Shown in pieces: positions 18,918-64,000 of a DNA stretch of 64,000 nt. The translations under genes and the position numbers were made by a program. The notes beneath the pieces are model-generated. The model did not search any database, was not told the DNA's origin, and worked only from the letters and a program-made list of their open reading frames with translations. Position 1 is the stretch's first letter, and every line of letters begins with the position of its first letter. Where the stretch lies: the NCBI GenBank assembly GCA_944358865.1, contig CALVRV010000003.1, positions 18,843 to 82,842 of the forward strand. Reading direction: 5' to 3'. Source of the DNA: an uncultured Bacilli bacterium (lineage in GTDB: Bacteria; Bacillota_I; Bacilli_A; RFN20; CAG-826).

Positions 18918-18929
18918 TAGGTGGTTGAT

Positions 18930-21008
18930 ATGGCACGTGAATACGATTTAGCACATACAAGAAATATCGGTATCATGGCTCACATTGATGCTGGTAAAAC
19001 CACTTGTACTGAAAGAATTTTGTTCTTTACCCATAAAATCCATAAAATTGGTGAAACCCATGAAGGTAGCGCCACAATGGACTGGATGGTACAAGAGCAA
19101 GAAAGAGGTATTACTATTACCTCAGCAGCAACAACTGCTTTTTGGAAAGGTAATAGAATCAATATCATTGACACTCCAGGGCACGTCGACTTTACTGTTG
19201 AAGTTGAAAGATCGTTACGTGTTTTAGATGGTGCTGTCACTGTTTTAGATGGTAAAAATGGTGTTGAGCCACAAACAGAGACTGTTTGGAGACAAGGATC
19301 AAAATATGGTGTACCAAGAATTGTCTTTGTTAACAAATTAGACGCTATTGGTGCTGATTTTGAAATGAGTGTTAATTCATTACATGATCGTCTTGCCGCT
19401 AATGCTTGTGCTGTTCAATATCCATTAGGCATCGAATCAACATTAAAAGGTTGTATTGACCTTGTTACTATGAAAGCTTATGAATATGGTAGCGATGTTA
19501 ATGAGCCACCACATGAAATTGCTATTCCTAGTGAATATGTTGATAAAGCTAACGAACTTCATCAAAAATTATTAGAAGCAATCGCAGCTTTTGATGATGA
19601 CATTATGATGAAAGTTTTAGAAGGCGAAGAATTAACTGTTGAAGAAATTAAATCAACAATTAGAAAAGCAGTTTTAACTGGCGAATTCTTCCCAGTTTTC
19701 TGTGGATCTGCTTATAAAAATAAAAATATTCAATTATTGTTAGATGGTATTATTGATTATTTACCATCTCCACTTGATATTACACCTGCAAAAGGCGAAG
19801 ATAAAAATGGCAACGAGGTTTCTTGCGTTCCAGATGATAACGCTCCTTTAGCCTCTTTAGCCTTTAAAATTGCAACCGATCCATTTATTGGACGTCTTGC
19901 CTATGTTAGAGTTTATTCTGGTATATTAAAAAGTGGATCATATGTTTATAACTCCACAAAAGGTGTTAAAGAACGTATTGGTCGTGTCGTTTTAATGCAC
20001 GCTAATCATAGAGAAGAAGTTGATGCTTTACATGCTGGTGATATCGGTGCTGTTGTCGGCCTTAAAAATACAACTACTGGTGATACATTATGTGATCCAG
20101 ATAATATTGTTATTTTAGAAAAAATGGAATTCCCTGAACCAGTTATTGAAGAAGCAGTGGAACCAAAAACTAAAGCAGACCAAGAAAAAATGACTGTCGC
20201 TTTATTAAAATTAGCTGAAGAAGACCCAACATTTAAAGTACATACAAATTCTGAAACCGGTCAAACTATTATCGCTGGTGTTGGTGAATTACATCTTGAT
20301 GTATTAGTAGACCGTTTAAGAAGAGAGTTCAATGTCCAAGTTAATGTTGGTGCTCCACAAGTTGGATACCGTGAAACAATTAAAAAGACCGCTGAATGTG
20401 AAGGTAAATACATTAGACAATCTGGTGGTCGTGGTCAATATGGTCACGTTTGGATTAGATTTGAACCTAACCCAGGCAAAGGATTTGAATTTGTTGACGC
20501 GATTGTTGGCGGTACTGTTCCAAAAGAATACATTAAACCTACTAAAGATGGTTTAGAAGATTCTTTAAATAGAGGTCTTATCGCTGGTTATCCAGTAATG
20601 GATATTAAGGCTACATTATTTGATGGTAGCTACCACGATGTTGACTCTAGTGAAGCAGCATTTAAAATCGCTGCCTCTATGGCTTTAAAAGAAGCTGCAA
20701 AAAAATGTTCTCCAGTTCTATTAGAACCCATCATGGCATTAGAAATTACTGTTCCAGAACAATATTATGGTGATGTTGTTGGTGATATCGCAAGAAGAAG
20801 AGGTACAGTAATGGGCGAAAATCAAAGAGGAAACGCTAAGATTATTGATGCCCAAGTTCCTTTAGCGGAAATGTTTGGATATGTTACTGACCTTCGTTCT
20901 ATGACCCAAGGTCGTGGTAACTATACAATGCAATTTGACCACTATGGAGAATGCCCAAGATTTGTTTCTGAAGAAATTATTAAAAAATCAGGAATGAATA
21001 ATAGATAA
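18930..21008 (+). CDS. fusA: elongation factor G
   Basis: [25 protein letters not shown]..., DTPGHVDF and NKLD. The ATG at 18930 follows AGGTGG. The track start at 18921 is an upstream GTG. Confidence 0.98.
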
Positions 21009-21094: not shown

Positions 21095-22279
21095 ATGGCA
21101 AAAGAAAAATTTGATAGATCCAAAGTTCACGTGAATATTGGTACTATCGGACACGTTGATCACGGTAAAACTACATTAACTGCTGCGATCACAAAAGTTC
21201 TCGCCAAACAAGGCGGAGCTAAAGAAATGGCTTATGATCAAATCGATAAGGCTCCTGAAGAGAAGGCTCGTGGTATCACGATTAATACAGCTCACATCGA
21301 ATATCAAACAGCTAAACGTCACTATGCCCACGTTGACTGCCCAGGGCACGCTGACTATGTTAAAAATATGATTACCGGTGCAGCACAAATGGATGGTGCA
21401 ATCTTAGTTGTTGCTGCTACTGATGGCGTCATGCCACAAACAAGAGAACACATCTTACTTGCTCGTCAAGTCGGTGTTCCTTACATTGTTGTATTCTTAA
21501 ACAAAACTGACTTAGTTGATGACCCAGAATTAATCGACTTAGTTGAAATGGATGTCCGTGATTTATTAAATAAATACGGATTCCCAGGTGATGAAGTTCC
21601 TGTCATTAAAGGTTCTGCACGTAAAGCCTTAGATGGTGATCCAGAAGCTGAAAAATCTATCCTTGAATTAATGGATGCTGTTGATAGCTACATTCCTGAT
21701 CCAGTCCATGATTTAGACAAACCTTTCTTACTCGCTATCGAAGACGTCATGACTATTTCTGGTCGTGGTACTGTCGTTACTGGCCGTGTTGAAAGAGGTA
21801 GTGCTAAATTAGGTGATGAAGTTGAAATCGTTGGTATTCGTCCAACTCAAAAATCTGTCATTACCGGTCTTGAATCTTTCCGTAAAATTCTTGACAGTGC
21901 TCAAGCTGGTGATAACGTTGGTGTCTTATTACGTGGTATTAACCGTGATCAAGTCGAACGTGGTCAAGTCTTAGCAAAACCTGGTACTGTTACTCCACAT
22001 ACCAAATTCAAAGCAAACGTCTACGTTTTAACAAAAGAAGAAGGTGGCCGTCACACTGCATTCTTAAGCAATTATCGTCCACAATTCTATTTCAGAACTA
22101 CTGACGTTACTGGTGTCATTACTCTTCCAGCTGATGTGAAGATGGTTATGCCAGGCGATAACGTTGAATTAACTGTTGAATTAATTCACCCAATCGCTAT
22201 TGAAAAAGGTACTAAATTCTCCATCCGTGAAGGTGGTAGAACCGTTGGTGCTGGTACTGTTAACGAAATCTTAAAATAA
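21095..22279 (+). CDS. tuf: elongation factor Tu
   Basis: [41 protein letters not shown] and NKTD. Confidence 0.99.
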
Positions 22280-22307: not shown

Positions 22308-22333
22308 AGAGCCGTTTTGACGGCTCTTTTTTA
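22308..22333 (+). terminator. rho-independent terminator after tuf
   Basis: AGAGCCGT (22308-22315) pairs with ACGGCTCT (22320-22327), followed by TTTTTT. Confidence 0.85.
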
Positions 22334-22337
22334 TTAT

Positions 22338-22366
22338 TTGCAAAAAGATTTTTTTATATATATTAT
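22338..22366 (+). promoter_or_regulatory. promoter abutting the radical-SAM gene; predicts a leaderless mRNA
   Basis: TTGCAA (22338-22343), a 17-nt spacer, TATTAT (22361-22366), then 6 nt and the ATG at 22373. There is no Shine-Dalgarno sequence. Confidence 0.5.
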
Positions 22367-22372
22367 TAAAAT

Positions 22373-23734
22373 ATGCCTATAAAATCATTTTTAGTTAATG
22401 AAAAAAACATATTTATCAACAATTTTAATGGTATGTTTTCTTACGATTTATATTTTTTAAAAGAATACGAAGGATATCAAATTCTAGCACCTAATACGTA
22501 TAGTAGAACTTTATATAAATGCATTAATATTTGTATACAAATATCTAATAATTGCAATATGAATTGTTTATATTGCTTTGCAAGTAAAAATAACGATGCT
22601 ATTTTAAGCAATCGTGAGATTAAAAAATACTTAGATTATATGTTTGATTATTTTGTGGAGGCTGATAAATTTTTTATAGATTTGAGCGGAAGTGGTGAAC
22701 CATTACTTAATATGAACACTATAAAATTTATCTCAAATTATGCCAAAAATAAAAGTAATGAAATAAAAAAAGAAATAATTGTTAATTTTGTTTCTAATGG
22801 TCTTTTATTAAACAAGAGGTATGTAGATTTTTTGCAATCTAATTCTATTTTATTTGGTGTTAGTATAGATGGAAACAAATTAAATCACGATTATTTTCGA
22901 AAAAGCAAAAATATAAATACGTTTGATTTAATTATAAAAAATATTGAAAATATAGAGAATCGAGAGTATATAGGATGCGCTGTTACTATAACTAATAGAG
23001 TATTTGATCTTGTTGAATCTCTAATTTTTTTAAAAATGTATTTTAAAACAATAAGTTATAAACCTGTACGATCCAAACAATATGGACTCGATGATATTTC
23101 TCTCAAACAATGGCAAAACGAATATTCTAAATTATGTATATTTTTAAAAAAAGAATTATCTAATAATGATACTAGTTCCATTAAGTGTATTTTAAATGGG
23201 GATGATTTCTTTGGTAAATTCCTGCTCAGATGTATTTTAAAGCTCAAAGCATTAAATAGATGTGATGCCGGTATGGGAAGGTTTTCTTTGAGCAATGATA
23301 AAAACATATATGGTTGCCCTGCATTGAGTTCTAATATAGAAGCTAAGATAGGCAATTTAGATAATGGATTAGACTCGAGTATTTTAAAAGAGATATTTAG
23401 TAATTCAATTAAAAAGTCAAATAAATGCTTAGATTGTTATTTTAAGTTTCAATGTGGTGGAGAATGTTTGATCGAACTTCAAGAAAACGACAATCAGCCA
23501 AATGAAATAATGTGCCAATTTAAACAAATGCTAATATTATTGGCTATGGATTTATCGCTATACTTAGAAAACCTTTATGATAAAAAAATTTATGAAGAAA
23601 TTTATATATTTTGTATTGAAAAAAGAAATAGATACAAGAAAAACAAAGACCTATATTTATATTTACAGAAAAACCCAAAACTATCTTTTATTGATGGCAA
23701 AGCAGAATTTGATAAGGAAAATAAAAAATATTGA
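22373..23734 (+). CDS. radical SAM enzyme with a C-terminal SPASM domain (peptide/protein-modifying maturase type)
   Basis: CNMNCLYC (CxxxCxxC, 22553-22576) and the SAM-binding-like SGSGEPLL. SPASM cysteines: CDAG...IYGC, then CLDCYFKFQCGGEC (Cx2Cx5Cx3C, 23426-23466), then a trailing EIMC. Confidence 0.8.
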   Translation: MPIKSFLVNEKNIFINNFNGMFSYDLYFLKEYEGYQILAPNTYSRTLYKCINICIQISNNCNMNCLYCFASKNNDAILSNREIKKYLDYMFDYFVEADKFFIDLSGSGEPLLNMNTIKFISNYAKNKSNEIKKEIIVNFVSNGLLLNKRYVDFLQSNSILFGVSIDGNKLNHDYFRKSKNINTFDLIIKNIENIENREYIGCAVTITNRVFDLVESLIFLKMYFKTISYKPVRSKQYGLDDISLKQWQNEYSKLCIFLKKELSNNDTSSIKCILNGDDFFGKFLLRCILKLKALNRCDAGMGRFSLSNDKNIYGCPALSSNIEAKIGNLDNGLDSSILKEIFSNSIKKSNKCLDCYFKFQCGGECLIELQENDNQPNEIMCQFKQMLILLAMDLSLYLENLYDKKIYEEIYIFCIEKRNRYKKNKDLYLYLQKNPKLSFIDGKAEFDKENKKY

Positions 23735-23805
23735 TTTGAATGTTATTGACTTCTTTGAAACTGTGTGCTTAAATTAAAATATAATCTACAAACAGAGAGG
23801 TTTAT

Positions 23806-25134
23806 ATGAAAATATTAAAACAAGTTTCAAAATTAAGTATTTTATGTTCACTGCCAATTTTTATTGTACAAAATAATGTATATTCAAAAAGTAGAGTTTT
23901 GCAAAATAAATTAAATTCTGTTAAACCAGCATTGTCTATTTATGATCAATTGGGAAAATTGAACGAAACCAATTTACAGTTGTCATTAAATGCAATTAAT
24001 GATATTGTCAAAAACAAAATTACAAAATACACAACATATAAGCAATATTATCCTGTTAAGAACTCTATATTAAAAGATTTTGACGGAAACGTTTTTGTTT
24101 TAGTAGAGTTTTACCCAACCGGATATGGCATTTATAATGTTTCTAATGGTGATATTGTAGAATTATCAAGTTCTGCAAATAGCCCGTATTATTCGTTAAA
24201 TAACCACAATAATTTATATTATGTTCCTATGGCCGGGTACTATAAAAAAGTTAACAATTCTTATGTAGATATTTTAACTAATCAATCTATTAGTTCGTTA
24301 TTTGTTGACGAACTAAAATCTTTATCGAACAATTTGCAAATGAATGCAATAAAATATATTAATTCCAGTAATGTGAAGATGGTTCTGGAAGGATTATCGA
24401 CTAATTCAATCAATACATATGTCACAAATTCTGCAAATTTGGATGTTGACATTAATGATTTATATCAAAGCGCTGATGTTGAAGTACCTTATTCTTGGTA
24501 TTTTAAACTAAATCACTCATCTTATCCGGAAAACATCACTGGAACTTGTGGATATACTGCATTATCTCTAATTTTAGGTTATACAGAAATTTTTCTAAGT
24601 AAAGGCTATTTTAGCACAGAAGAAGTTTCTAATTATATTATTCCCTATGAAGGAAATTATGCTACCGGCGTTCCAACAATTACCGATGGACTTTTAAATG
24701 AATTTGGCGAAAATCTTGGGGGAAGCGTACCTAGTGACTTAACTGCCGCTACGAATTTATTTATGCAGGGCAAAAATAAAGAATATGAAATATATGAACA
24801 TGTATGGAGATTTTCAAATATAACCGACCCAATTAAAGATGGAGTGCCCGCTGCTTACTTTGGAAACTATTCTGATACCATTTTAGAAACTAATGATCAT
24901 GTTACCGTAGTATATGGTTATGATAATGATGGCATGTTATTGCTTCATACTGGATGGTATGTCGAAGAAGGCGACATATTAAACAACACAAATATAAAAA
25001 TATCTAGATTAGGATTTTTTAAAGAAGGTGGAGTATTTGCATTATATAATAAAAGCGCGCATCAACATAATAACTATTTTCACATCGGGCCTATAATGAA
25101 GATGTGCGGATGTGGAGTACTTGTAGAATGTTAA
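23806..25134 (+). CDS. secreted papain-fold cysteine protease-like protein (streptopain C10 / staphopain C47-like) with an N-terminal pro/inhibitor-like region
   Basis: N-terminal signal/anchor. YSWYF..SSYPENITGTCGYTALSLILGY resembles the C10 catalytic Cys region (W.Q.PYN...TGCVATA). NDHVTVVYGYDNDGMLLLHTGWY resembles the His region (GHAFVIDG...HVNWGW). DGNVFVLVEFYPTGYGIY resembles an I69-type prodomain. The protein ends in a Cys-rich tail, MCGCGVLVEC. RBS GAGAGG. Confidence 0.5.
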   Translation: MKILKQVSKLSILCSLPIFIVQNNVYSKSRVLQNKLNSVKPALSIYDQLGKLNETNLQLSLNAINDIVKNKITKYTTYKQYYPVKNSILKDFDGNVFVLVEFYPTGYGIYNVSNGDIVELSSSANSPYYSLNNHNNLYYVPMAGYYKKVNNSYVDILTNQSISSLFVDELKSLSNNLQMNAIKYINSSNVKMVLEGLSTNSINTYVTNSANLDVDINDLYQSADVEVPYSWYFKLNHSSYPENITGTCGYTALSLILGYTEIFLSKGYFSTEEVSNYIIPYEGNYATGVPTITDGLLNEFGENLGGSVPSDLTAATNLFMQGKNKEYEIYEHVWRFSNITDPIKDGVPAAYFGNYSDTILETNDHVTVVYGYDNDGMLLLHTGWYVEEGDILNNTNIKISRLGFFKEGGVFALYNKSAHQHNNYFHIGPIMKMCGCGVLVEC

Positions 25135-25147
25135 TTTGGAGTTTCAT

Positions 25148-25393
25148 ATGAAAAACGAAAAGAAATTTAAAACACTTTTTATCATAACTCTTATATCTTT
25201 TTGTGGTTTGATGTTATGCCTTTCTTTTCTTATTACATATTTTGTCGTTAGAAGTATTAATAACAGTTGGACATGGCTACCTTGTGATGTTAGTAATTCT
25301 AAAGATAAAATTATGATTAGAAATGACACTAATAATTCTAGTTATAAATTATTACAATATCATACAGAAGAGGATAATAATTATGTCAAGTAA
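25148..25393 (+). CDS. 81-aa single-pass membrane protein, unknown function
   Basis: GGAG lies 7 nt upstream of the ATG at 25148. MKNEKKFKTLFIITLISFCGLMLCLSFLITYFVV is a TM segment, followed by a polar tail of about 45 aa (SWTWLPCDV...). Confidence 0.55.
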   Translation: MKNEKKFKTLFIITLISFCGLMLCLSFLITYFVVRSINNSWTWLPCDVSNSKDKIMIRNDTNNSSYKLLQYHTEEDNNYVK

Positions 25394-25505
25394 AACAAAG
25401 CAAATTTTATTATGGACATTATATGTAATTTTAATTTTAGGTCTTGTTGTCCTTGGCTTCTTTTTAGCAACTTTTTGTTGTTTAGGACTTGCGAATTATT
25501 GTTAG
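25383..25505 (+). CDS. 40-aa hydrophobic peptide with a Cys-rich C-terminus
   Basis: MSSKTKQILLWTLYVILILGLVVLGFFLATFCCLGLANYC. Its ATG overlaps the stop of the preceding ORF, suggesting translational coupling. The track lists a longer 60-aa version starting at 25323. Confidence 0.45.
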   Translation: MSSKTKQILLWTLYVILILGLVVLGFFLATFCCLGLANYC

Positions 25506-25514
25506 GATTAAATT

Positions 25515-25646
25515 ATGAAAAATTTAACTAAAAAAGAAAAAATATTTGTTATTACATCTATTACAATAATTACATTATTTATTATCACTTTGATAATGTC
25601 TTTAGTATTCATACTTATTGATATTTATTTAATTCTTATATTATAA
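25515..25646 (+). CDS. 43-aa hydrophobic peptide (not in the ORF track)
   Basis: My translation: MKNLTKKEKIFVITSITIITLFIITLIMSLVFILIDIYLILIL, ending in TAA at 25644-25646. AGGA lies 7 nt upstream. Confidence 0.4.
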   Translation: MKNLTKKEKIFVITSITIITLFIITLIMSLVFILIDIYLILIL

Positions 25647-25666
25647 ATATAAATTATTGATTTTAG

Positions 25667-25707: not shown

Positions 25708-26544
25708 ATGAGTGCAACATTATATGTCGTTATTGGATTTCTAATTATATTTCTTGGGACTACTTTAGGAAGTGCTTTAGTTTTCTTTTTTAAAACTAGT
25801 ATTTCTTCAAAATTAAACACCATATTTTTAGGTTTTGCTGCTGGTGTTATGATTGCTGCAGCAATATTTTCTTTAATTATTCCTTCTTTAGAACAAGGAA
25901 ATAGTTATTTTTCTAGTGTATTAAATTCATCTAGTGATGATCCTTTAGTTATATTTTTAGGTGTTTTACCTGCGATTGGTGGGATTGTTATTGGTGGTTT
26001 ATTTTTATTAGCCTTAGACCATATTATTCCTCATATTCATAAAAATGGAGAAGAAGAAGGAATTAAATCTAGACTTAATAAAGAAATTAAATTTTTTCTT
26101 GCTGTTACAATTCATAATATACCAGAAGGATTAACTGTTGGTTTTGCATTTGGTTCTGCTTGGGCTAGTGTTAGTAGTAATGGTAGTAGTGTATTAATCG
26201 GTCCTTTAGCGGTCGCAATTGGGATGGCTATTCAAAATTTCCCTGAAGGTGCGACTGTAGCGTTACCATTTGCTAATGCTTTAAATAGCAAAACAAAGGG
26301 ATTTTTATTAGGAAGTGCCTCTGGTATTGTTGAACCTATTGCAGCGATTATTGGATTTTTCTTATCCTTTGCTTTAATTGGTGCACAGCCATGGTTTTTA
26401 GCATTTGGTGCAGGCGCGATGATGTATGTTGTTATAGAAGATTTAATTCCTGATGCAATGGCAAATAATAAGCCCCATTTGGCTACGTGGTCTGCAATAA
26501 TAGGATTTATTATTATGATGGCCTTAGATGTATGTTTAGGATAA
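25708..26544 (+). CDS. ZIP-family divalent metal (zinc) transporter
   Basis: Polytopic membrane protein with HNIPEGLTVGFAFG and QNFPEGATVALP, which are ZupT/ZIP signature helices. Confidence 0.75.
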   Translation: MSATLYVVIGFLIIFLGTTLGSALVFFFKTSISSKLNTIFLGFAAGVMIAAAIFSLIIPSLEQGNSYFSSVLNSSSDDPLVIFLGVLPAIGGIVIGGLFLLALDHIIPHIHKNGEEEGIKSRLNKEIKFFLAVTIHNIPEGLTVGFAFGSAWASVSSNGSSVLIGPLAVAIGMAIQNFPEGATVALPFANALNSKTKGFLLGSASGIVEPIAAIIGFFLSFALIGAQPWFLAFGAGAMMYVVIEDLIPDAMANNKPHLATWSAIIGFIIMMALDVCLG

Positions 26545-26547
26545 TAT

Positions 26548-27645
26548 ATGGAAAATATTGATACAAATGAACAATTATATTTAGATATTAATCCTATTAG
26601 TAAAGGGCGTAGGATGCTTGTTTTTCTCGGTGATTTTTTTATTAATTTTATTTTGTCGATGTTTATATTTAATATTATTGTCTTACCGATTGGCCAAGTC
26701 TCAAGCCAATATGAAGAAAAAATGGAACAAATTAATATTGCTCAAGAAAAACGCGATGATATTTTATATGATAATGATTTGTTGTTTTATGAAACTGAAA
26801 GTGAAAAGTATTCTTTTAATTTAAATTTAAATTATACTTTTGAATTATATTTAAAATATTATGTTTTTGAAGATGAAAATTTAATAAAATATGAAGTTTT
26901 TGCAACATATTTTAGTGAAATTTGCAATAATAATGAACTATATATAAATTTATATAAGGATATAAATAGTAACTATAATTTTTTTGATATTAGCGATAAT
27001 AGTGTTAAATTAAAACAACAATACAAAGACCAGCTTGCTATATATTTTGACACGAAAGATGAATTAGATGAGGCGGGGAAAAATAACTTTCAAACACTTC
27101 TAGATAATGTTTTCTTATTCCTTTATAGCGAGATGCTTCTTGATATGGAAAATAATAATACTTTAAATTACAATGCATACCAAGGAATTGTTGATGAAGT
27201 TAATCAATATTATGATATTTTATTAATTGTTTGTTGTTATGTATCTTTTATAATATCAAGTTTAATTTGTTTTATTGTCGTCCCATTAATTAGTAAAACC
27301 GGAAAAACTATTACCATGATGACAATGCATATTGAAAGAGTAGGTATGAACACATTGTTTATTTTAAAAAGAGGTGAACGAGCACTTCACAGTGTTTATC
27401 ATATTGTTTTTAATTTAGCTTTTATTATGTTTTTACCTTGCTTTGTTGTATCTTTTAATTACTTATTTTCTTTAGGCGGATTTTTTATTATTTCTTCTAT
27501 TTCTATGGTTTTGATTTTAGCGTCATTTGTATTTATTTTAGTTAATAGTTATAATCGAAGTCTAATAGACTTTATTAGCCAATCTGTGTTAATATCAAGT
27601 GATGATTTTGATAATTTAGCAAGAATGAAAGGACAATTAAAGTAG
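26548..27645 (+). CDS. RDD-like polytopic membrane protein with a large central loop
   Basis: KGRRMLVFLGDFFINFIL is an RDD-type N-terminal helix. SKTGKTITMMTMHIERVGMN is the second RDD half. They are separated by an Asn/Tyr-rich segment of about 190 aa. Confidence 0.4.
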   Translation: MENIDTNEQLYLDINPISKGRRMLVFLGDFFINFILSMFIFNIIVLPIGQVSSQYEEKMEQINIAQEKRDDILYDNDLLFYETESEKYSFNLNLNYTFELYLKYYVFEDENLIKYEVFATYFSEICNNNELYINLYKDINSNYNFFDISDNSVKLKQQYKDQLAIYFDTKDELDEAGKNNFQTLLDNVFLFLYSEMLLDMENNNTLNYNAYQGIVDEVNQYYDILLIVCCYVSFIISSLICFIVVPLISKTGKTITMMTMHIERVGMNTLFILKRGERALHSVYHIVFNLAFIMFLPCFVVSFNYLFSLGGFFIISSISMVLILASFVFILVNSYNRSLIDFISQSVLISSDDFDNLARMKGQLK

Positions 27646-28715
27646 TGATTGAAAAAGTAGAAGAAAAAACATATATTACTTACCAATATGCCAGGTTTTA
27701 TAAAAGAGTGTTGGCTAATGTAATTGATTTTCTTTTCTTTTTATTATGTTTTGGTGTCTTATTTATTTCAATACGCGCGATTGTTAATAATTCAAGTCAA
27801 GGAAGAAGTGTTAGCGAACAATTAAGAACTATTCGTCTTGACAGCGGCCTTTATGTTGAAGTAGCATCTAGAGATAATGTTTTAATGGATGTTATTGCTT
27901 ATAATAATGAATTTGATCCTGCTGCATCTCAAAAAAGAAATAATGCGATTAGGGCAATTGAAAATTTTCTTACATATTGTGATGAATTATTTAATAATCC
28001 AGAAAGTGAATATTATAATCCTAGTAATTATGATGTTGTTTATAATTCATATTTAGATTATTTTTTAAATGAAGATTTACTTTACACAAATAGTAGTAAT
28101 ATTTCTGCTCCATATTTTGATTTAAATAATGTTGATGAAAATGGTTTTGCTATTGAAAGTGAAGCAGCTTTTGAATTAGGCGCTAAATACATAGATTTTT
28201 ATGAAAACTGTTATTCTCCATATATAAATGAAGTATTACAAGGATATCTTATTACTATTATTCCTAATTATTATGATTTAACTAAATTTTCTAGTGATAT
28301 GTTATTTTATGTTGAATTACCAATAAGTTATTGTTTATCAGGAATATTAATATATTTTATACCAACCTTAATTTTTAAAAGAGGAAGAAAGACATTTGGA
28401 AAGGCCATATATAAAATTGGCTTAATAAATAAAAACATGGTTAATCCTTCTTTTAAGATTAGTTTAGCTAGATTTTGTATATTTTATTTTTTAGAACTAT
28501 TACTCGCACCTTTTACTTTTTTAATTCCATTTATTATTTCTTTTACTTTAATGGTGTTTTCTAAAAAAAGACAAGGGTTTTGCGACTATATGTTAAATCT
28601 TTGCGAAGTTGACACTACAAGTATAAAAATATTTTATGATATACGTGATGCTAAAATTAATATGATTGATAAACCAACAAAAGATATTAATTTTAAGCAA
28701 AGAGACAATTTATAA
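27645..28715 (+). CDS. RDD-family membrane protein (paralogous architecture)
   Basis: YARFYKRVLANVIDFLFFLLCFG and KRGRKTFGKAIYKIGLINKN flank a loop of about 180 aa. The GTG start overlaps the upstream TAG by 1 nt. Confidence 0.45.
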   Translation: MIEKVEEKTYITYQYARFYKRVLANVIDFLFFLLCFGVLFISIRAIVNNSSQGRSVSEQLRTIRLDSGLYVEVASRDNVLMDVIAYNNEFDPAASQKRNNAIRAIENFLTYCDELFNNPESEYYNPSNYDVVYNSYLDYFLNEDLLYTNSSNISAPYFDLNNVDENGFAIESEAAFELGAKYIDFYENCYSPYINEVLQGYLITIIPNYYDLTKFSSDMLFYVELPISYCLSGILIYFIPTLIFKRGRKTFGKAIYKIGLINKNMVNPSFKISLARFCIFYFLELLLAPFTFLIPFIISFTLMVFSKKRQGFCDYMLNLCEVDTTSIKIFYDIRDAKINMIDKPTKDINFKQRDNL

Positions 28716-28741: not shown

Positions 28742-30637
28742 ATGAAGAATTCAAAACATTTTTTAAAAACACTATTAATATTACCTTTTTTATTATTAAG
28801 TGGTTGTTCATTAATTAAAGATATTAATAGCAGCACTAGTAGCACTACAAGTATGGATTTTTCAATTACAATTAATAATGGTGAAGAAGTTGATTTAATT
28901 ATTGGTGAAACTTTACAATTAGACATTAATTATCAACCTATCGAAAGTTATGAATTAATGTTTACTTCTTCTGATGAAAATGTTGCTAGTGTTTCTGATC
29001 AAGGATTAATAACTGCTAATAATGTTGGCCAAGCAACCATAACCGTAACATATAATAACAATAGCGATTCTATTATTGTTAATGTATTAGAAGATGAATC
29101 GTTTATTAAAATAACTAATAATGAAAATCCATTAAATGTAACACTTTTTGATAGTGCAATTATTTCATATATCACTAGCGATGATATTGAAAATGTTAAC
29201 GCCATATCAAGTAATGAATCAATTGTAAGTATTGTTTCTATTTATGATGATTTTGTCGAAATATCCGCTGAAAATGTTGGAAGTGCAATTATTACTATTT
29301 ATGCTGATGCATTTATTTTTGATGAAATAACTATAAATGTTTATCAAAATAATGACGGATATATAGAAATTTCTTTAGATCAATCTTCAATTATGGTTAA
29401 TGAAAACATTCTTATAAATGTTGATATTGATCCTATTGAATATCAAAATAACATTGTTTTTAATATTTTAAAAGGTAATGATTTAATAACATTAGAAGGA
29501 AATAGGATTACCGCTAATAAATCTGGAGAAGTTCAAATACAAGCTTCGTGTCATGATTTAGTGAGCAACATTTTAACATTGACAATATATGATTTTAAAA
29601 TCGAATTGACTAATTCTGTCATTGAATTAAACGACCATGAAAGATTAAGAATAATTAATTATGATGGTAGTAGAAACAACCTTCATGGTGAAGCTTTAGA
29701 TAATAGTATCATTTCTTTTGGACTTTCTCCAGTTGGTGATATTTTTGTTAATGGAGATAATGTTGGTAAAACATCATTTTACTTATATGATGATAATGGT
29801 TTATTTAGCAATACAATTGATGTTGAAGTTATAAGTGGTGATCCTTATGCTGGGATAAGTATGGAAGAATTTTATTCTTCTTATACTAGATCTGATTCAT
29901 ATATTGATTCTAAATATCGCACTCAACATAATTTCATGTCAGGAGATATCGTTACACCTGATGATGTACCTACTGTAGCAAGCAATCAACCAACTAGTAA
30001 TGGTTTATTAATTCATAATAGTGATAAAAATTATTCTAGTGACGGAAATACTTATACAGTTGAAGATAAAAATGGCAATAAAGCTTTTGATATTTATTAT
30101 GGTGGTGCTTATATTACCTTAGAAGAAGTAGCAGCATATATTTACGCTTTTGGAGATATACCTGTTAATTATATTGAAGATAATGAAGGCTACCCATCAT
30201 CATCACCATGGGGTGAATATCTAAGATTAAATCATAGTCAATTTTATGGTTGGTCTGACTCTTATGAGCCTGAATTACCAAATATCACTGGATGTGGTGG
30301 CAATTTAGTTTATTACGAACTTGATATTGGCACAACTGGCACTGATACTGGTCCACAATTTCCTAATCGTATTTATAATGATGGTTATAGAATTACTAGA
30401 GGTGCGGCTAGAATTGTCTATTCTAAATATTATCGTGGCAGTGGCCTTACTGTTAACGATGAAGATAGATATGTATTTTATACTTATAATCATTACAATG
30501 ATTTCCAAGAATATCTAAATTATAAAAATGGTTGGGGTTATATTTTTGGTAATATTACTGCTGGTAATGATCAAGATGAATATAATCGCAATAATCCACC
30601 TACACCATATATAGAAGTTGTTAGACAAGAATTATAA
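28742..30637 (+). CDS. surface lipoprotein with Big_2-type Ig repeats and a C-terminal barnase/binase-like (microbial RNase N1/T1 superfamily) domain
   Basis: Lipobox LLLSGC. The pattern NVASVSDQGLITANNVGQATITVTY recurs and is Big_2-like. The C-terminus aligns with barnase as I remember it: LEEVAAYIYAFGDIPVNYI, YYELDIG, GYRITRGAARIVYS and YTYNHYNDFQEY. Confidence 0.65.
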   Translation: MKNSKHFLKTLLILPFLLLSGCSLIKDINSSTSSTTSMDFSITINNGEEVDLIIGETLQLDINYQPIESYELMFTSSDENVASVSDQGLITANNVGQATITVTYNNNSDSIIVNVLEDESFIKITNNENPLNVTLFDSAIISYITSDDIENVNAISSNESIVSIVSIYDDFVEISAENVGSAIITIYADAFIFDEITINVYQNNDGYIEISLDQSSIMVNENILINVDIDPIEYQNNIVFNILKGNDLITLEGNRITANKSGEVQIQASCHDLVSNILTLTIYDFKIELTNSVIELNDHERLRIINYDGSRNNLHGEALDNSIISFGLSPVGDIFVNGDNVGKTSFYLYDDNGLFSNTIDVEVISGDPYAGISMEEFYSSYTRSDSYIDSKYRTQHNFMSGDIVTPDDVPTVASNQPTSNGLLIHNSDKNYSSDGNTYTVEDKNGNKAFDIYYGGAYITLEEVAAYIYAFGDIPVNYIEDNEGYPSSSPWGEYLRLNHSQFYGWSDSYEPELPNITGCGGNLVYYELDIGTTGTDTGPQFPNRIYNDGYRITRGAARIVYSKYYRGSGLTVNDEDRYVFYTYNHYNDFQEYLNYKNGWGYIFGNITAGNDQDEYNRNNPPTPYIEVVRQEL

Positions 30638-32991: not shown

Positions 32992-34917
32992 ATGGAAATT
33001 AGAATTAAAGATTTGACTAAAATCTTCCCAGGTGATCCAAAGAAAAATATCCGCGATACTATTGCTGTTAAAGATTTGGATTTTGTTGTTCCTGATGGTC
33101 AATTAGTTGGTCTACTTGGTCCTAGTGGATGTGGTAAATCTACTACACTTTATATGATTAGTGGTTTACAAAATCCTACCAGTGGTGAAGTTTGGTTTGG
33201 TGATCAAGAGGTTACTAATCTTTCTCCTGAAAAAAGAGGTATTGGTTTAGTTTTCCAAAACTATGCTTTATATCCTCATATGACTATTTATAAAAATATT
33301 GAGTTTCCTTTGACTAACCTAAAAGTTGAGGTTCCTTTAGTGGAATTCTATAGTTATAAATATGTTAGTGAATACGATCTTAAAAAAGATGATAAATCAT
33401 ATTTTATTATGAGATCTATTCGCTCTTTAATGATGAAAGCTGGTTTAGGACCTTTACAATATCGTATTAAATTAAATAAAAACAAAGAAAATAATCACTT
33501 AACCATTAATATCGAATTAAATAAAGTTAACAAAGACGCAAATGAGATGGTTAAAGCACAATTCCCAGAAATATTAAAAACTGAATTAACTCTAGTTGAA
33601 GAAAAACAAGTTAGTCAACCATTATATGATTCTTCATTTAGAGCGACAGTTAAAAATATTAGCGATAAAGCATGCATTTCATTAACATTTAAAGGTAATT
33701 TAACTAAAAAATTTGATGTCAGCACGATTGATGATACGATAAATGCTGCTAAAAATGTTATTAAAAATAATAAATTTGGTCGTATTGAAGGTGTTTTAAT
33801 TACACGTACTCAAAGTGGTGGCTATGAATTAATGGCTATGTTAAATAATCTTTATTTCTCTCGTTTAGATGAATGTGTTAAAGCATTAAGTGAAATTTAT
33901 GATTTTGCTGGTGTTAATACATTTGTTACTGATATGCGTGATAAAGAATTAGAAAAAACTATTAAAAATGATTTAAAATTAGAAAAAATTACTTATTCAG
34001 ATTTTAAATTATATTTTGATAAGAAAAATATTAAAGTCTATTTTAAATTGGTAAAAGCTAGCCAAGAAGACGCTAAACGTGTTTTAGAAGGTCTAGCGGA
34101 AAAATTACATTTTGAAGACCAAGAATTAAATTCTAGTTTAGCTATCTCACATCGTAAATTAACAAAAGAAGAAAGAAGATCAATTGTTATTGCAACCGCA
34201 AAACTTGTTCAAGTTGATGAATATTTGCAAAGAAAACCTTCTCAATTATCTGGTGGTCAGCAACAACGTGTCGCTATTGCTAGAGCCTTAGTTAAAAAGC
34301 CAAAAGTCTTATTATTAGACGAACCATTATCTAACTTAGATGCACGTTTAAGACTTCAAACTAGAGAAGAAATTAGAAGAATTCAAAAAGAAACAGGAAT
34401 TACAACTGTATTTGTTACTCATGACCAAGAAGAAGCGATGTCTATTTCTGATAAAATAGTTGTTATGAAACTTGGTGAAATGCAACAAATTGATGCACCT
34501 CAAGAAGTTTATAATTCACCTGCTAATTTATTTGTCGCACAATTCCTTGGTACTCCTCCAATCAATGTCTTTAAAGGAAAAATTAAAGATAATAAAGTAT
34601 ACATTGGGGAAGATGTTATTTATTCTTTAGAAGAAAAATCAAAAGATCGCAATGTTTATGTTGCAATTAGACCTGAAGGATTCTCTATGGCAACTAAAAA
34701 AGACAAAGAAGTATTAACTGCTAAATTAAGCATGATACAAGTTTTAGGTAGAGATATTTCTATTGTTGCAACAAATCCAAATTGCACTAAAGAAAGCTTT
34801 AAAGTAATTATTTCTAGCGAAGATAGAAGCGATGATGAAGATTTAACATTCAAAGTTAAACCTAATAAGATGTTCTTATTTGACGGTGAATCTGAAGAAA
34901 GAATTTATATTAAATAA
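32992..34917 (+). CDS. ABC transporter ATP-binding protein, UgpC/MalK type, with an insertion of about 275 aa in the helical subdomain
   Basis: Walker [10 protein letters not shown] and Q-loop [40 protein letters not shown] and VTHDQEEAM then appear only after an intervening segment of about 275 aa. The C-terminal regulatory domain is MalK-like. Confidence 0.85.
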
Positions 34918-34931
34918 ATTTGGTGAAAGTT

Positions 34932-36002
34932 ATGTTTAATTTTAAGAAAAAACAACAACTAGAAAGCGTAGAAGTAAGTGGTCAAGTTGCAGCTTTACCA
35001 CCAGAATCTATGTATGATGAAAAAGATAACGTCGTTGTTAGACTAGTTTCACATCGCAAAAATAAAAAACCTTATCAAATTACTGGTATTGAAGACGTTT
35101 CTGCAAAAAATAACTGGAAAGCATGGCTATATTTAGGACCTGTTATCGTTTTAATTGCCGTTTTCCTTATTTATCCTTTGATCAATACCATTTTCATTGC
35201 TTTTACAGAAAATTATCAATATGCATCAGGAACATTTGATGGTTTTACAATTAATAATTTTGGTGTTATTTTGGGCTTAACACCTACATCAACTGGAGCA
35301 TTTGAATCTAATTTTACTAGATACGCTATTCCAAATACCTTTATTATTGTTTTCGTTACTGTTCCTTGTTCTACCGCTTTAGCGCTTATTATTTCTGTTG
35401 CTCTAAATTCTATTAAGTGGTTCCAAAAAGTTTTACAAACAATATTCTTTTTACCATATGTCACTAACGCTATTGCTATTGGTATGGTGTTTAGTGTTAT
35501 TTTTGATAAAAATGGTATTATTAACTACTTATTTAATTCTGATATTACTTGGATTTATGGTGCTGATCCTAAAATAGCTATGATTCCACTTTGTATTTAT
35601 ATTGTTTGGTCTTCTATACCATTTAAGATTTTAGTTTTCTTAAGTGGCTTACAAGGCATTGACAAGCAATATTATCAAGCTGCACAAATTGATTCATGTA
35701 GTAAGGCTAAAACATTATGGAAAATTACTGTTCCATTATTATCACCACAAATACTTTATATTTTAGTTACATCATTTATTGGTGCATTTAAAGAATATAC
35801 TTCTGTTGTTGGTTTATTTGATGGACCTGGTACAATGGGCACAAATGGTGATCCAAATATGGAAACAATCGTTTTCTATATTTATGAAAGATTATCGCAG
35901 CAAACATCTCTTGCCGCTGCTGCAGCTGTATTCTTATTTGTCATTATCTTATTATTTACTTTACTACAATTTATTGTCTCTAAATCGAGAGTGCATTATT
36001 AG
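34932..36002 (+). CDS. ABC transporter permease (UgpA/MalF-like)
   Basis: Six-TM protein with an EAA-like loop: QAAQIDSCSKAKTLWKITVPLLSP. GGTGA precedes the ATG at 34932. The track start at 34920 is a TTG. Confidence 0.85.
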   Translation: MFNFKKKQQLESVEVSGQVAALPPESMYDEKDNVVVRLVSHRKNKKPYQITGIEDVSAKNNWKAWLYLGPVIVLIAVFLIYPLINTIFIAFTENYQYASGTFDGFTINNFGVILGLTPTSTGAFESNFTRYAIPNTFIIVFVTVPCSTALALIISVALNSIKWFQKVLQTIFFLPYVTNAIAIGMVFSVIFDKNGIINYLFNSDITWIYGADPKIAMIPLCIYIVWSSIPFKILVFLSGLQGIDKQYYQAAQIDSCSKAKTLWKITVPLLSPQILYILVTSFIGAFKEYTSVVGLFDGPGTMGTNGDPNMETIVFYIYERLSQQTSLAAAAAVFLFVIILLFTLLQFIVSKSRVHY

Positions 36003-36019
36003 GGAAGGAGGGTTTTGTT

Positions 36020-37021
36020 ATGTTAGAAAATGTTAAAAAATTATTTAAAGTCAAATCAAAAGAAATAGAAAATCCTTATCCTGAATTTAAGCTTGAAACT
36101 GATAATATTGTTTTATCAATTGAAGAGGCTGGACGCACTGTCGATTCTATTAAAAGACAGGAAATGGTTACAAAAATTATTTCAACAATATTTGTCTATA
36201 TATTTATTGTTGCTTTGGCTTTAGCATTTGTTTTCCCGTTTTATTGGATGGTTATTACATCTTTAAAACAAAGAACTGAAATTATTGCGACCGAACAAAC
36301 GTTTTTCCCAACAATTGTCATGTGGTCAAACTATGTTTATGTTTTCCAAGTATTTGATTTTGGAACATTTATGTTTAACACAATTGTTGTTGCGATATTC
36401 TCCACAATCGGAACGTTATTAACAACTATTTTTGCCGCTTTTGCATTCGCAAGATTAAAGTTCAAAGGTCGCGAATCATTATTTATGGTCTTTTTAATGA
36501 CTATGATGATTCCTGGCGAAATGATGGTTATTTCTAACTACGTCACGGTTGCTTCGTTTGGATGGGTTGGTGAAGGCCAAACATTAATTGAAGCTTATCT
36601 TTGTATGATTGTTCCATTTTGGATCAGTGTATTCTACATTTATTTGTTAAGACAAAACTTCAAACAAATACCTAATGAACTATATCTTGCTGCTAAAGTA
36701 GATGGAAAATCTGATTGGTCATTCCTTTGGAGAGTTATGGTTCCATTAGCAATGCCTACATTAATTTCTATTACCATTTTAAAATTTATGGGGACTTGGA
36801 ATTCTTATGTGTGGCCAAACTTAGTTACACAGGAAGATTCATTTAAACTCATAAGTAATGGTTTAAGAGATTCAACCTTCGTTGACGCTGATAGTGGCCA
36901 AACTGAATATGGTTATCAAACTGCAGCGACAATGTTAGTTACTGTTCCATTATTCTTATTATTCATCTTCTTTAGAAAATACATCATGCGTGGTGTAGGA
37001 AGAGCGGGTATTAAAGGATAA
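36020..37021 (+). CDS. ABC transporter permease (UgpE/MalG-like)
   Basis: EAA loop LAAKVDGKSDWSFLWRVMVPLAMP. Strong RBS GGAAGGAGGG. Confidence 0.85.
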   Translation: MLENVKKLFKVKSKEIENPYPEFKLETDNIVLSIEEAGRTVDSIKRQEMVTKIISTIFVYIFIVALALAFVFPFYWMVITSLKQRTEIIATEQTFFPTIVMWSNYVYVFQVFDFGTFMFNTIVVAIFSTIGTLLTTIFAAFAFARLKFKGRESLFMVFLMTMMIPGEMMVISNYVTVASFGWVGEGQTLIEAYLCMIVPFWISVFYIYLLRQNFKQIPNELYLAAKVDGKSDWSFLWRVMVPLAMPTLISITILKFMGTWNSYVWPNLVTQEDSFKLISNGLRDSTFVDADSGQTEYGYQTAATMLVTVPLFLLFIFFRKYIMRGVGRAGIKG

Positions 37022-38634: not shown

Positions 38635-38707
38635 TACCTATATTATTTATTAATACCTATTTATAAACTTCATTTTATTTAAAAATTACACCACAAGGAG
38701 GTAATTT

Positions 38708-40231: not shown

Positions 40232-40246
40232 TAATAGGAGGTAACT

Positions 40247-41761: not shown

Positions 41762-41783
41762 TCTACATTAGGAGGTAATTGTT

Positions 41784-42263
41784 ATGTTATATTGTTCTAA
41801 CTGTGGTAAAAGAATTGATGAAAAGAAAATCGAAGCAAAAAACAATTCTTTAATTATGCAAAATGATGTTATAAACGAAAATACTAAAGTCGTTTATATT
41901 TGTCCTCGTTGCGAGCATCATATTCACCGCGATTTAGAAGAAATAGAAATTAAGCAATTATCTCGCGCAGCACATGCTGAAATACAAAGAAGTAATAACT
42001 TTTTTGCTTCTGGTATGGGCAATGTTTGTATTGGCGCTATTGCACTAGTTTTAGCTGTCATATTCTATTATTTATCTTGTGATTTAAACAACCAAATGAA
42101 ATTAGATATGTCAAGCGCGGAATTTTATGTGTTTTTAGTGCTTACCATTGTTGGTGGTTTGTTATTAGTAGCGGGTGTTGTTTTAGCCTTGGTTGGTTTA
42201 ATAAAAAAGGCTAGATACAATAATCTGCTTAAGGATATAAATAATAAGACTTTTATCCAATAA
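41784..42263 (+). CDS. zinc-ribbon membrane protein, unknown function
   Basis: CSNCGKRI...CPRCEHHIH is a four-Cys ribbon, followed by two hydrophobic helices. RBS AGGAGG. Confidence 0.6.
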   Translation: MLYCSNCGKRIDEKKIEAKNNSLIMQNDVINENTKVVYICPRCEHHIHRDLEEIEIKQLSRAAHAEIQRSNNFFASGMGNVCIGAIALVLAVIFYYLSCDLNNQMKLDMSSAEFYVFLVLTIVGGLLLVAGVVLALVGLIKKARYNNLLKDINNKTFIQ

Positions 42264-42331
42264 TCTAATAAGAAAGTCTACTTCAAATTCATTTATAGAT
42301 GAATATTGCGATGAATATATAGGAGGAAATT

Positions 42332-63256: not shown

Positions 63257-63341
63257 ACAGATGTACAAATAACAAACGTCAATTCTTGCAACTATAAGTT
63301 GCATTTTTAAAACCAGATAATAATGAATCAAGATACAAACT

Positions 63342-64000
<659 letters not shown>

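Follow-up and report, generated by a model that had tools for sequence, protein, structure and literature searches.

Radical S-adenosylmethionine (SAM) enzymes of the SPASM type are known mainly as maturases of ribosomally synthesized and posttranslationally modified peptides (RiPPs) and of a few special proteins, namely sulfatases and QhpC. Could ordinary secreted proteins be among their substrates as well? We address this question with a 64,000-nucleotide stretch of DNA from an uncultured Bacilli bacterium (GenBank assembly GCA_944358865.1, contig CALVRV010000003.1, positions 18,843 to 82,842 of the forward strand; hereafter, the window), in which a cassette of five genes, all on one strand, lies between tuf and a ZIP transporter gene. 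The cassette encodes a radical SAM/SPASM enzyme (rSAM), an exported peptidase whose last residue is Cys, and three small membrane proteins. On comparative-genomic grounds, we propose that it is a three-part exoprotein module and not a RiPP cluster, and that rSAM modifies the C-terminal Cys tail of the adjacent secreted protein (its cargo) before export, a reading to which we assign a probability of about 0.58. The five open reading frames (ORFs) were already described in a first-pass annotation of the sequence, which we confirm as described, together with the tuf terminator and the translational coupling of the 40-aa peptide:

22373-23734, plus strand: radical SAM/SPASM gene, 453 aa
23806-25134, plus strand: cysteine peptidase gene (proposed cargo), 442 aa
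25129-25131, plus strand: codon of the C-terminal Cys442 of the peptidase (tail ...GVLVEC-COOH)
25148-25393, plus strand: gene for an 81-aa single-pass membrane protein
25383-25505, plus strand: gene for a 40-aa hydrophobic peptide, with an 11-nt overlap with the end of the 81-aa ORF
25515-25646, plus strand: gene for a 43-aa hydrophobic peptide

Which described systems come closest? CteB and the other SCIFF maturases, together with PapB, share with rSAM the CxxxCxxC motif, a three-Cys site for auxiliary cluster I (AuxI), a four-Cys site for auxiliary cluster II (AuxII) and, probably, a Cys thiol as the reactive group. They differ from it in several respects: rSAM scores far under their cut-offs, has no N-terminal RiPP recognition element (RRE) and no small Cys-rich precursor, carries an extra helical C-terminal extension of ~70 aa with an invariant Cys, and has as its presumed substrate the last residue of Sec-exported proteins of 250 to 760 aa with many folds. 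In the QhpD-QhpC-QhpE system, a SPASM enzyme likewise acts in the cytoplasm, where it introduces Cys thioethers into a protein subunit that is exported afterward, and a QhpE/mycosin-like S8 peptidase accompanies one cargo type here (~560 aa, ending V-I-P-S-C), at some loci only. However, dehydrogenase subunits are absent from the present loci, the cargos have ordinary signal peptides and are unrelated to QhpC, and the conserved element is a terminal Cys instead of internal Cys...Asp/Glu pairs. The anaerobic sulfatase maturase (anSME) is also a radical SAM/SPASM enzyme that lacks an RRE and has as its target a Cys in a full-length protein, modified before the protein is exported, but here there is no sulfatase and no C/S-x-P-x-R motif, and the target Cys would be C-terminal rather than in an active site. 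MftC, which acts on the C-terminal Tyr of MftA, resembles rSAM in a chemistry centered on the substrate's C-terminal residue; it differs in its dependence on an RRE protein, MftB, and on a small peptide whose last residues are Val-Tyr, and the sequence relation is weak.

Two further groups of systems resemble other parts of the cassette. The staphopain-staphostatin and streptopain (SpeB)-Spi operons encode a secreted, papain-fold pro-peptidase of the C10/C47 type followed by a small dedicated partner gene, as seen here. Their partner is a cytoplasmic, lipocalin-like inhibitor, whereas here it is a membrane protein or lipoprotein, and an rSAM and a C-terminal Cys tag are both missing from such operons. 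The LPXTG/sortase, PEP-CTERM/exosortase and GlyGly-CTERM/rhombosortase systems also combine a short C-terminal tag on unrelated secreted proteins with a dedicated enzyme and covariation of the two. Their tags, however, include a transmembrane helix and are cut outside the cytoplasm by membrane transpeptidases or proteases, in contrast to the proposed tag of three to four residues ending in Cys-COOH and its cytoplasmic radical SAM enzyme. Overall, the system would work like QhpD/anSME and CteB/PapB, yet it is a member of none of the known SPASM families, because every curated cut-off fails. The first-pass annotation had recognized no described RiPP class in this gene combination, and that view stands: the combination matches no curated family and no published description that we found, and the literature searched contained no earlier account of an rSAM/SPASM enzyme with Cys-ended secreted proteins.

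Cys-Ended Secreted Proteins beside the Enzyme

How widespread is the pairing of this enzyme with a protein that ends in Cys? The database contained 268 rSAM homologues, and the rSAM profile yielded 63 loci from species-representative genomes and 80 loci from metagenomes; the comparison covered 148 related loci overall, with 99 rSAM clusters at 90% identity. Automatic scoring counted any complete ORF of at least 100 aa on the same strand, with Cys as its last residue, within three genes of rSAM. The named hosts of the genome loci are mostly Acholeplasmataceae, Izemoplasmatales, Anaeroplasma, Erysipelotrichaceae, "Bacilli" gut metagenome-assembled genomes (MAGs) and Christensenella-like MAGs. 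Only about one-quarter of the rSAM loci have a homologue of the window peptidase; the others carry a different protein of 250 to 760 aa. Automatic scoring detected a Cys-ended ORF in 65 of the 99 clusters, while 24 were on contigs too short to judge. Inspection of the 10 clusters scored as having none revealed a masked Cys-ended ORF in 6, a penultimate Cys in 2, a disrupted locus in 1 and a pseudogene in 1. An adjacent Cys-ended protein is present in ~71 of the 75 assessable clusters, compared with a background of 8/366 (2.2%) among more distant ORFs. Within the window, the peptidase is the only Cys-ended protein among 45 ORFs of at least 100 aa. The first-pass annotation had allowed that its grouping would fail if rSAM and the peptidase were never syntenic elsewhere; they form a conserved pair in other genomes.

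The 100 cargos fall into ~20 families that are unrelated by BLAST, among them C10/C39-like Cys peptidases, subtilases, a trypsin-like peptidase, MACPF proteins, DUF6973 and many without a Pfam match. N-termini resembling signal peptides are found in 75 of 88 nonredundant cargos (~85%). Their tails (59 distinct sequences) give a logo with L/V/W/I at position -4, P/S at -3, S/T at -2 and C at -1, and no residue or motif other than the terminal Cys is common to the ~20 families. The peptidase, which had been cast as a processing enzyme, is one of ~20 interchangeable Cys-ended cargo families and so is more likely to be a substrate. At least some cargos may be pore-forming toxins with transporter-type self-protection. 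Two loci (L013, 10963-12564; L031, 1672-3270) place secreted, Cys-ended MACPF (perforin-like) proteins beside the same rSAM family, and large proteins that resemble fused ATPase-permease ABC transporters, as read from their N-termini, flank these genes.

A third component completes the pattern. The gene immediately 3' of the cargo nearly always encodes a lipoprotein with a lipobox or a membrane protein with one to seven transmembrane segments, and it often overlaps the cargo stop. The triad of rSAM, a Cys-ended protein with a signal peptide, and a lipoprotein or small membrane protein is complete in the window and in ~71 of the 75 assessable clusters. The partners change with the cargo: 66 proteins form 38 families, and no shared third component emerged, as hhalign comparisons among the four largest partner families gave nothing above 50% probability and Pfam gave no match. 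Could the terminal Cys be a by-product of overlapping start and stop codons? Where A is the last base of the codon preceding the terminal Cys, the sequence A-TGT-TAA creates an out-of-frame ATG and hence spurious "ML..." extensions of the partner, seen at many loci (e.g., L001 9720-9726, L028, L048 and L065). We rejected this explanation: in many cases the cargo and partner genes are free of overlap, and the true start of the partner is located farther downstream.

The Cargo Tail Follows the Enzyme

On a neighbor-joining tree of rSAM representatives, the residues before the terminal Cys sort by enzyme clade, irrespective of cargo fold. Individual clades have LM[EST]C, WP[STE]C, x[RK]C, VLTLC or [PS][SGA]C as their tail, and [PS][SGA]C is found on at least 10 cargo families. 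Cys peptidases end in LM[EST]C with the enzyme clade of the window and in [PS]S/A-C with the Izemoplasma/Acholeplasma clade, and C39-like cargos end in WPSC in one rSAM clade and in x[RK]C in another. At locus L064 (5746-10330), a single rSAM lies between a trypsin-like cargo of 386 aa (NWPTC) and a C39-like cargo of 473 aa (TWPTC).

What happens to the tail when the enzyme is missing? Natural controls are available. Locus L068, from a near-identical relative, has the order tuf-terminator-peptidase-72aa-40aa-43aa-ZIP, syntenic with the window, and no rSAM between the terminator and the peptidase; its peptidase ends in ...CPCGVLVGW as opposed to ...CGCGVLVEC in the window. Peptidase homologues ending in LQY (L069) and VLS (L070) also have no rSAM nearby, whereas rSAM is present with 16 distinct Cys-ended peptidase homologues and with L152. 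The flanks of L068 and the window are nearly the same (end of tuf 97%, ZIP 96% and the next two proteins, a 365-aa protein and an RDD protein, 99% identical), and the cassette proteins are much less so: 65% for the peptidase, 51% for the 81/72-aa protein, 58% for the 40-mer and 67% for the 43-mer (window 22346-25650 versus L068 168-2090). DNA homology is interrupted over rSAM and the initial 147 nt of the peptidase gene, with the left break at about 22345. The interval between tuf and ZIP is a hypervariable island, and the cassette is a real variable segment because its flanks are 96 to 99% identical while its proteins are 51 to 67% identical and rSAM is absent from L068. Such hypervariability is compatible with secreted effectors that undergo diversifying selection or allelic exchange, and its occurrence between otherwise 96 to 99% identical strains suggests a role in competition or host interaction.

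Other loci deserve mention in their own right. The system is decaying at two of them: in L032 (8396-10329), rSAM is followed by genes of 201 and 430 aa that read as insertion sequence/transposon-like, with no cargo, and in L067 (6860-8314), rSAM is broken into four fragments. A sub-branch of the peptidase (L069, 4835-7766; L154, 2517-5828) is preceded by a sigma-70-family protein (PF04542/PF08281) and has no rSAM; we take this protein to be of the extracytoplasmic function type, and the adjoining protein of 186 to 196 aa is perhaps anti-sigma-like.

A Radical SAM/SPASM Enzyme Closest to Thioether-Forming Maturases

The 453-aa protein is a cytoplasmic radical SAM/SPASM enzyme, and its nearest relative, in sequence and in predicted fold, is CteB, a maturase that forms thioethers. 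Membership in the radical SAM superfamily is established by PF04055 (48.2 bits, above the cut-off of 29.5; E 1.7e-12) and by the cluster motif CxxxCxxC (C61/C65/C68), to which ~60 residues are N-terminal; the predicted model also matches radical SAM structures in Foldseek. Seven Cys (C297, C315, C352, C355, C361, C365 and C381) are invariant in an alignment of 20 homologues and satisfy the SPASM subgroup motif C-x9-17-G-x4-C ... C-x2-C-x5-C-x3-C ... C; in pairwise alignment, C297/C315/C365 correspond to the three-Cys AuxI site of CteB and C352/C355/C361/C381 to its four-Cys AuxII site. The Pfam SPASM model PF13186 does not match the protein at E<=0.1, and the SPASM assignment is made from the seven-Cys motif and the alignment to CteB. 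The first-pass call of a radical SAM/SPASM enzyme holds on both counts.

To which SPASM family does it belong? The enzyme fits no curated family: NCBIfam (June 2026) has no model whose cut-off it reaches. The best matches are to peptide maturases, led by PapB (NF047865, PapB-family ranthipeptide maturase; 152.2 bits, cut-off 340) and the SCIFF maturase (TIGR03974, CteB/Tte1186; 123 bits, cut-off 425), and then other enzymes of this kind. Scores are lower still for QhpD (TIGR03906; 82.3 bits, cut-off 453), anSME (TIGR03942; 74.6 bits, cut-off 349.45) and the MftC family, a weak match (45 bits, cut-off 265). Nor do the neighborhoods supply the expected substrates, as there is no co-encoded peptide with CX3D/E repeats of the PapB type in the window or related loci, no SCIFF precursor ORF (~45 aa with six Cys) beside rSAM, and no qhpABC operon or other qhp gene was found. 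The concern that rSAM might prove to be a sulfatase maturase is answered in the negative by its distance from the TIGR03942 cut-off.

Structure comparison points in the same direction. A profile of the 20 homologues matches CteB (5wgg) with E 1e-51, over CteB residues 92-449 only, and the AlphaFold2 (AF2) model, which has a predicted local distance difference test score (pLDDT) of 90.6, finds CteB as its best Foldseek match (template modeling score, TM, 0.70-0.75), with anSME second; anSME is a significant relative in both sequence and fold (E 1e-16, TM ~0.6-0.75). Modeled as a beta-hairpin and one short helix before the barrel, the N-terminus is short (50 aa). An RRE is absent from rSAM; the CteB alignment begins at CteB residue 92-98, and nothing but the hairpin and short helix precedes the barrel. 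A family-specific helical extension of ~70 aa (378-449) follows the SPASM domain and carries an invariant Cys, C414.

These observations bear on the idea that rSAM acts on a small precursor. The gaps flanking rSAM have medians of 66 to 80 nt, and no small-ORF family is shared beside rSAM across the 148 loci. There is neither room nor need for a peptide precursor, because the gaps are short, no small-ORF family is shared, and rSAM has no RRE. The RiPP logic of the first-pass annotation, a leader protease with a small-peptide substrate, is not borne out.

An Exported Peptidase with a Papain-Type Fold

The 442-aa protein is predicted from sequence and model to be an exported pro-cysteine-peptidase of the C10/C47 (interpain/staphopain) type. 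It starts with a hydrophobic signal or anchor (about residues 1-30) and continues with a PepSY-like domain (about residues 80-155), which the model suggests is a prodomain. Residues 223-425 match NF045837, the putative cysteine peptidase "Mplas_Cys_pep," with 70.8 bits against a cut-off of 45. The putative catalytic residues C248 (in CGY; codon 24547-24549) and H365 (codon 24898-24900) are invariant in the homologue alignments. With the AF2 model (pLDDT 80), Foldseek ranks prointerpain A (3bb7, a C10 zymogen) best (E 7.6e-4, probability 0.97, TM only 0.28-0.37) and staphopain (C47; 1y4h/1pxv), in complex with staphostatin, next (E 0.1-0.3), and the peptidase profile matches interpain A with E 0.016. 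Pfam C10, C47 and I69 do not match the protein at E<=0.1, and Peptidase_C39_2 (PF13529) gives 19.3 bits, short of its cut-off of 24, with a precomputed PF13529 match in some homologues. The predicted kinship to C10/C47 holds at the level of fold and does not imply family membership; accordingly, the resemblance to streptopain and staphopain noted on first reading is upheld for the fold (prointerpain A and staphopain) and not for the Pfam families.

Near its C-terminus, the peptidase has the zinc-ribbon-like motif H419-x-H421...C434-x-C436-G. This putative zinc-type site belongs to the peptidase and not to rSAM, because it is kept with or without the enzyme. As a candidate target of rSAM it was rejected: it persists in L068, L069 and L070, which have neither rSAM nor a terminal Cys, and it is absent from the Cys-ended peptidases of other clades (tails SPSSC and TSASC).

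The Small Genes Belong with the Peptidase

The 81-aa protein is a shortened homologue of a 224-aa lipoprotein-like protein (GISAC lipobox) at locus L001 and is also homologous to the 72-aa protein (ISSC) of L068; its N-terminal 26 aa match with 62% identity (BLASTP, E 8e-8). The 40-mer begins 11 nt inside the 81-aa ORF, is translationally coupled to it and ends in FCCLGLANYC. It is kept in L001 and L068 (58% identical to the L068 copy), and its cysteines are not: the L001 copy, with rSAM present, contains no Cys and ends in ...TFYY, and the L068 copy, with rSAM absent, keeps ...VNYC. The 43-mer is hydrophobic apart from a charged N-terminus (MKNLTKKEK) and has counterparts of 42 aa in L001 and 43 aa in L068 (67% identity). 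Both peptides are probably real genes because they are conserved in L001 and L068, and on the same comparison they go with the peptidase rather than with rSAM, because they are retained without the enzyme and the L001 40-mer is Cys-free. They are confined to this sub-lineage, and the rSAM-cargo pair is found in ~100 clusters.

The candidate substrates named at the outset were the C-terminal tail of the protease, which is now the favored one, and the small peptides. Of these, the 40-mer was rejected, as its Cys residues do not track with rSAM. The terminal Cys of the 40-mer (...ANYC in the window; ...VNYC in L068, 1820-1942) resembles the cargo tag, a likeness that we judge coincidental, though it is unexplained.

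Proposed Mechanism and Its Alternatives

How might such an enzyme act on whole secreted proteins? In our proposal, rSAM would be a CteB-like cytoplasmic radical SAM/SPASM maturase that lost its leader-binding RRE domain, and its substrate would be the C-terminal tail of the protein encoded by the adjacent gene, here the Sec-exported pro-cysteine-peptidase with the end ...LVEC-COOH. Because a Sec substrate leaves the cytoplasm C-terminus last, the tail could still be free and unfolded when the enzyme binds it, either ahead of export or while export is under way. The enzyme would recognize a short tag of the form hydrophobic-[P/S/M]-[S/T/E]-Cys-COOH, and the thiolate of the terminal Cys would probably bind at the open iron site of AuxI, as in CteB, PapB and Tte1186. 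The crosslinking Cys, introduced as selenocysteine, is reported to bind an auxiliary cluster in PapB and Tte1186, in which AuxI has an open site (PMC10177961). The product would most likely be a thioether crosslink of the sactionine or ranthionine type to a nearby residue; we propose this chemistry because the closest families and structures (CteB, PapB, SCIFF maturase and QhpD) are thioether formers. The 81-aa protein, and in the window also the 40- and 43-mers, would be cargo-specific membrane partners and not substrates of rSAM. By analogy with staphostatin and with toxin-immunity pairs, the partner is most plausibly a tethered inhibitor or immunity factor of the peptidase, or else an anchor.

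Several points weigh against this proposal. In the AF2 model, the peptidase tail is a confidently folded beta-ribbon (pLDDT 86-94), in which Cys442 could support the structure or bind metal once the protein is exported. Phylogenetic relatedness among the loci means that the P value of the association (1e-67) overstates their independence, and ~20 cargo families is the better count. No acceptor residue is conserved in the tails, which fits Calpha-type sactionine links without demonstrating them. An eighth invariant Cys, C414, might occupy the vacant position at AuxI, which would weaken the CteB analogy. The suggested role of the partners is drawn purely by analogy, for proteins that have no Pfam match and no mutual similarity. 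There are also exceptions among the loci: L154 has a Cys-ended peptidase and no rSAM on its 7-kb contig, L111 and L145 have their Cys at the penultimate position, L032 is disrupted, and the rSAM of L067 is pseudogenized.

Would the same tail be subject to a different chemistry? The terminal residue might be oxidatively decarboxylated in the manner of MftC, converted to formylglycine or dehydroalanine in the manner of anSME, or covalently tethered to a lipid or to the partner lipoprotein. A tether, the more novel option, would give wall-less bacteria a new means of anchoring proteins in the membrane or of sorting them. This is an unlikely alternative. In its favor, strict conservation is limited to the last residue, the tag is similar to a lipobox ([LVI]-[PS]-[ST]-C), a membrane protein or lipoprotein is nearly always encoded beside the cargo, the hosts are mostly wall-less or Mollicutes-like Bacillota, and rSAM has a weak match to the MftC family and its second-best structural match in anSME, which modifies whole proteins without an RRE. 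Yet the strongest similarity in both sequence and fold is to thioether formers, with MftC and anSME much weaker (45 and 75 bits), and walled lineages (Erysipelotrichaceae and Christensenella-like MAGs) have the system too. Lipid attachment at a C-terminus in the cytoplasm must moreover be compatible with Sec export, and we know of no precedent for intermolecular crosslinking or lipidation by a SPASM enzyme. It is more doubtful still that rSAM and cargo are linked while another residue of the cargo or partner is modified, leaving the terminal Cys to serve, once exported, in a disulfide to the partner, in metal binding together with the HxH..CxC ribbon or in redox control. The folded ribbon of the window peptidase, with four invariant metal-type ligands near the terminal Cys, speaks for that idea, as does L154, which keeps its Cys with no rSAM nearby. 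On the other side, nothing else in residue or motif unites the ~20 cargo families, and the pair of residues that precedes the Cys varies in step with the rSAM clade among cargos of unrelated fold. Where rSAM is lost, the terminal Cys is lost too and HxH..CxCG stays, and the partners are too diverse to be a common substrate.

A RiPP-like cluster, in which rSAM crosslinks a small peptide such as the 40-mer and the papain-fold enzyme serves as leader or maturation protease, has some points in its favor: Cys-rich peptides are the usual substrates of CteB/PapB-type SPASM enzymes, three Cys lie at or near the C-terminus of the 40-mer, and the small ORFs, with their Shine-Dalgarno sequences, are conserved in L001 and L068. 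We now regard it as very improbable, since rSAM occurs with a Cys-free 40-mer in L001 and ...NYC occurs without rSAM in L068, the small peptides are limited to one sub-lineage against ~100 clusters for the rSAM-cargo pair, both peptides are almost wholly hydrophobic membrane helices and not leader-core precursors, and the cargos include nonproteases such as MACPF. RiPP-cluster membership in general fails as well, on the missing RRE, the missing shared small-ORF family and the untracked Cys of the 40-mer. Next to negligible, in our estimation, is the prospect that rSAM is an anSME or another housekeeping SPASM enzyme with a distant target and a coincidental neighborhood. Its significant kinship to anSME and a PF00884 protein upstream of rSAM in L004 are what such a view could draw on. 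Against it stand the TIGR03942 score far under its cut-off, a neighborhood association far beyond chance, and the presence or absence of the gene, together with the tail Cys, between near-identical genomes. No sulfatase lies near the window rSAM, and none was noted in the related loci inspected save the PF00884 protein of L004, which we read as LtaS-like from its N-terminal membrane segments.

What would tail modification by rSAM mean if correct? One rSAM clade would have become adapted to reading a minimal tag at the C-terminus of entire secreted enzymes and toxins, widening the substrate scope of SPASM maturases to ordinary exoproteins. A terminal Cys beside rSAM would then be a one-residue marker for a subset of the secretome in uncultured, Mollicutes-like bacteria of gut and sediment, and the tag and its enzyme would make a compact, portable pair for protein engineering. 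The prediction is sharp and cheap to test with the 453-aa enzyme and a C-terminal peptide. More tentatively, and at somewhat less than even odds, we envisage a new tagging system of anaerobic, mostly wall-less Bacillota/Mycoplasmatota, in which Sec-exported hydrolases and pore-formers bear a Cys-COOH tag of three to four residues, a dedicated radical enzyme alters the last residue (by crosslink, decarboxylation or tether) as a maturation or sorting signal, and each cargo has its own immunity or inhibitor membrane protein.

Boundaries and Composition of the Locus

The window is low-GC DNA with the standard genetic code. The cassette is bounded by the following features:

18921-21008: fusA
21095-22279: tuf (stop at 22279)
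22308-22333, plus strand: intrinsic terminator of tuf (stem 22308-22327, 8 bp with 5 GC pairs, then a T-run)
22338-22366, plus strand: sigma-70-like promoter, TTGCAA-17-TATTAT (consensus match only)
25708-26544: ZIP transporter gene (PF02535)

The tuf terminator is the upstream edge of the variable island. Promoter-like sites around the cassette are no commoner than in shuffled sequence. The rSAM ATG (22373) lies 7 nt past the -10-like TATTAT and has no Shine-Dalgarno sequence (22361-22375), and the mRNA may be leaderless because of this short spacing and the missing ribosome-binding site. The peptidase, 81-aa, 40-aa and 43-aa ORFs are each preceded by a Shine-Dalgarno-like sequence of the GGAG/AGGA type.

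Is the cassette foreign in composition? Its GC content is 0.21 to 0.33, compared with 0.35 to 0.41 in fusA/tuf and 0.21 to 0.28 in the following 5 kb. AT-richness was rejected as a mark of insertion, as the cassette equals its downstream background: composition reveals a GC-rich tuf rather than a foreign cassette, and by itself marks no insertion because the cassette's GC is no lower than that of the downstream DNA. Of the AT-rich insertion originally described, the comparison with L068 supports a variable island and the base composition contributes nothing.

Other Features of the Window

Immediately beyond ZIP, two tandem paralogous membrane proteins (26548-27645 and 27645-28715) have C-terminal RDD domains (PF06271; E 0.008 and 8.9e-12); their genes overlap, stop codon to start codon, and both are 99% conserved in L068. 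They are followed at 28742-30637 by a 631-aa lipoprotein (LLSGC lipobox) with a Big_2 domain, a weak C-terminal match to the ribonuclease family PF00545 (E 0.0035) and another stretch weakly similar to BLB8/JUQZ-1-type bacteriocins. This protein is 74% identical to its L068 copy, with neighbors at 99%, and may be a second variable surface or toxin-like protein. Farther downstream, 37072-45208 encodes paralogous lipoproteins (520, 507, 504 and 958 aa) with long poly-Thr/Pro linkers right after the lipobox, resembling substrate-binding lipoproteins with stalk linkers; the genes upstream of this run (32992-37021) look transport-related from their N-terminal sequences. At 2482-2572, a ribosomal protein L10 leader (RF00557) precedes the rplJ region, and the window closes within a 16S rRNA gene, of which it includes the 5' 656 nt (63340-64000).

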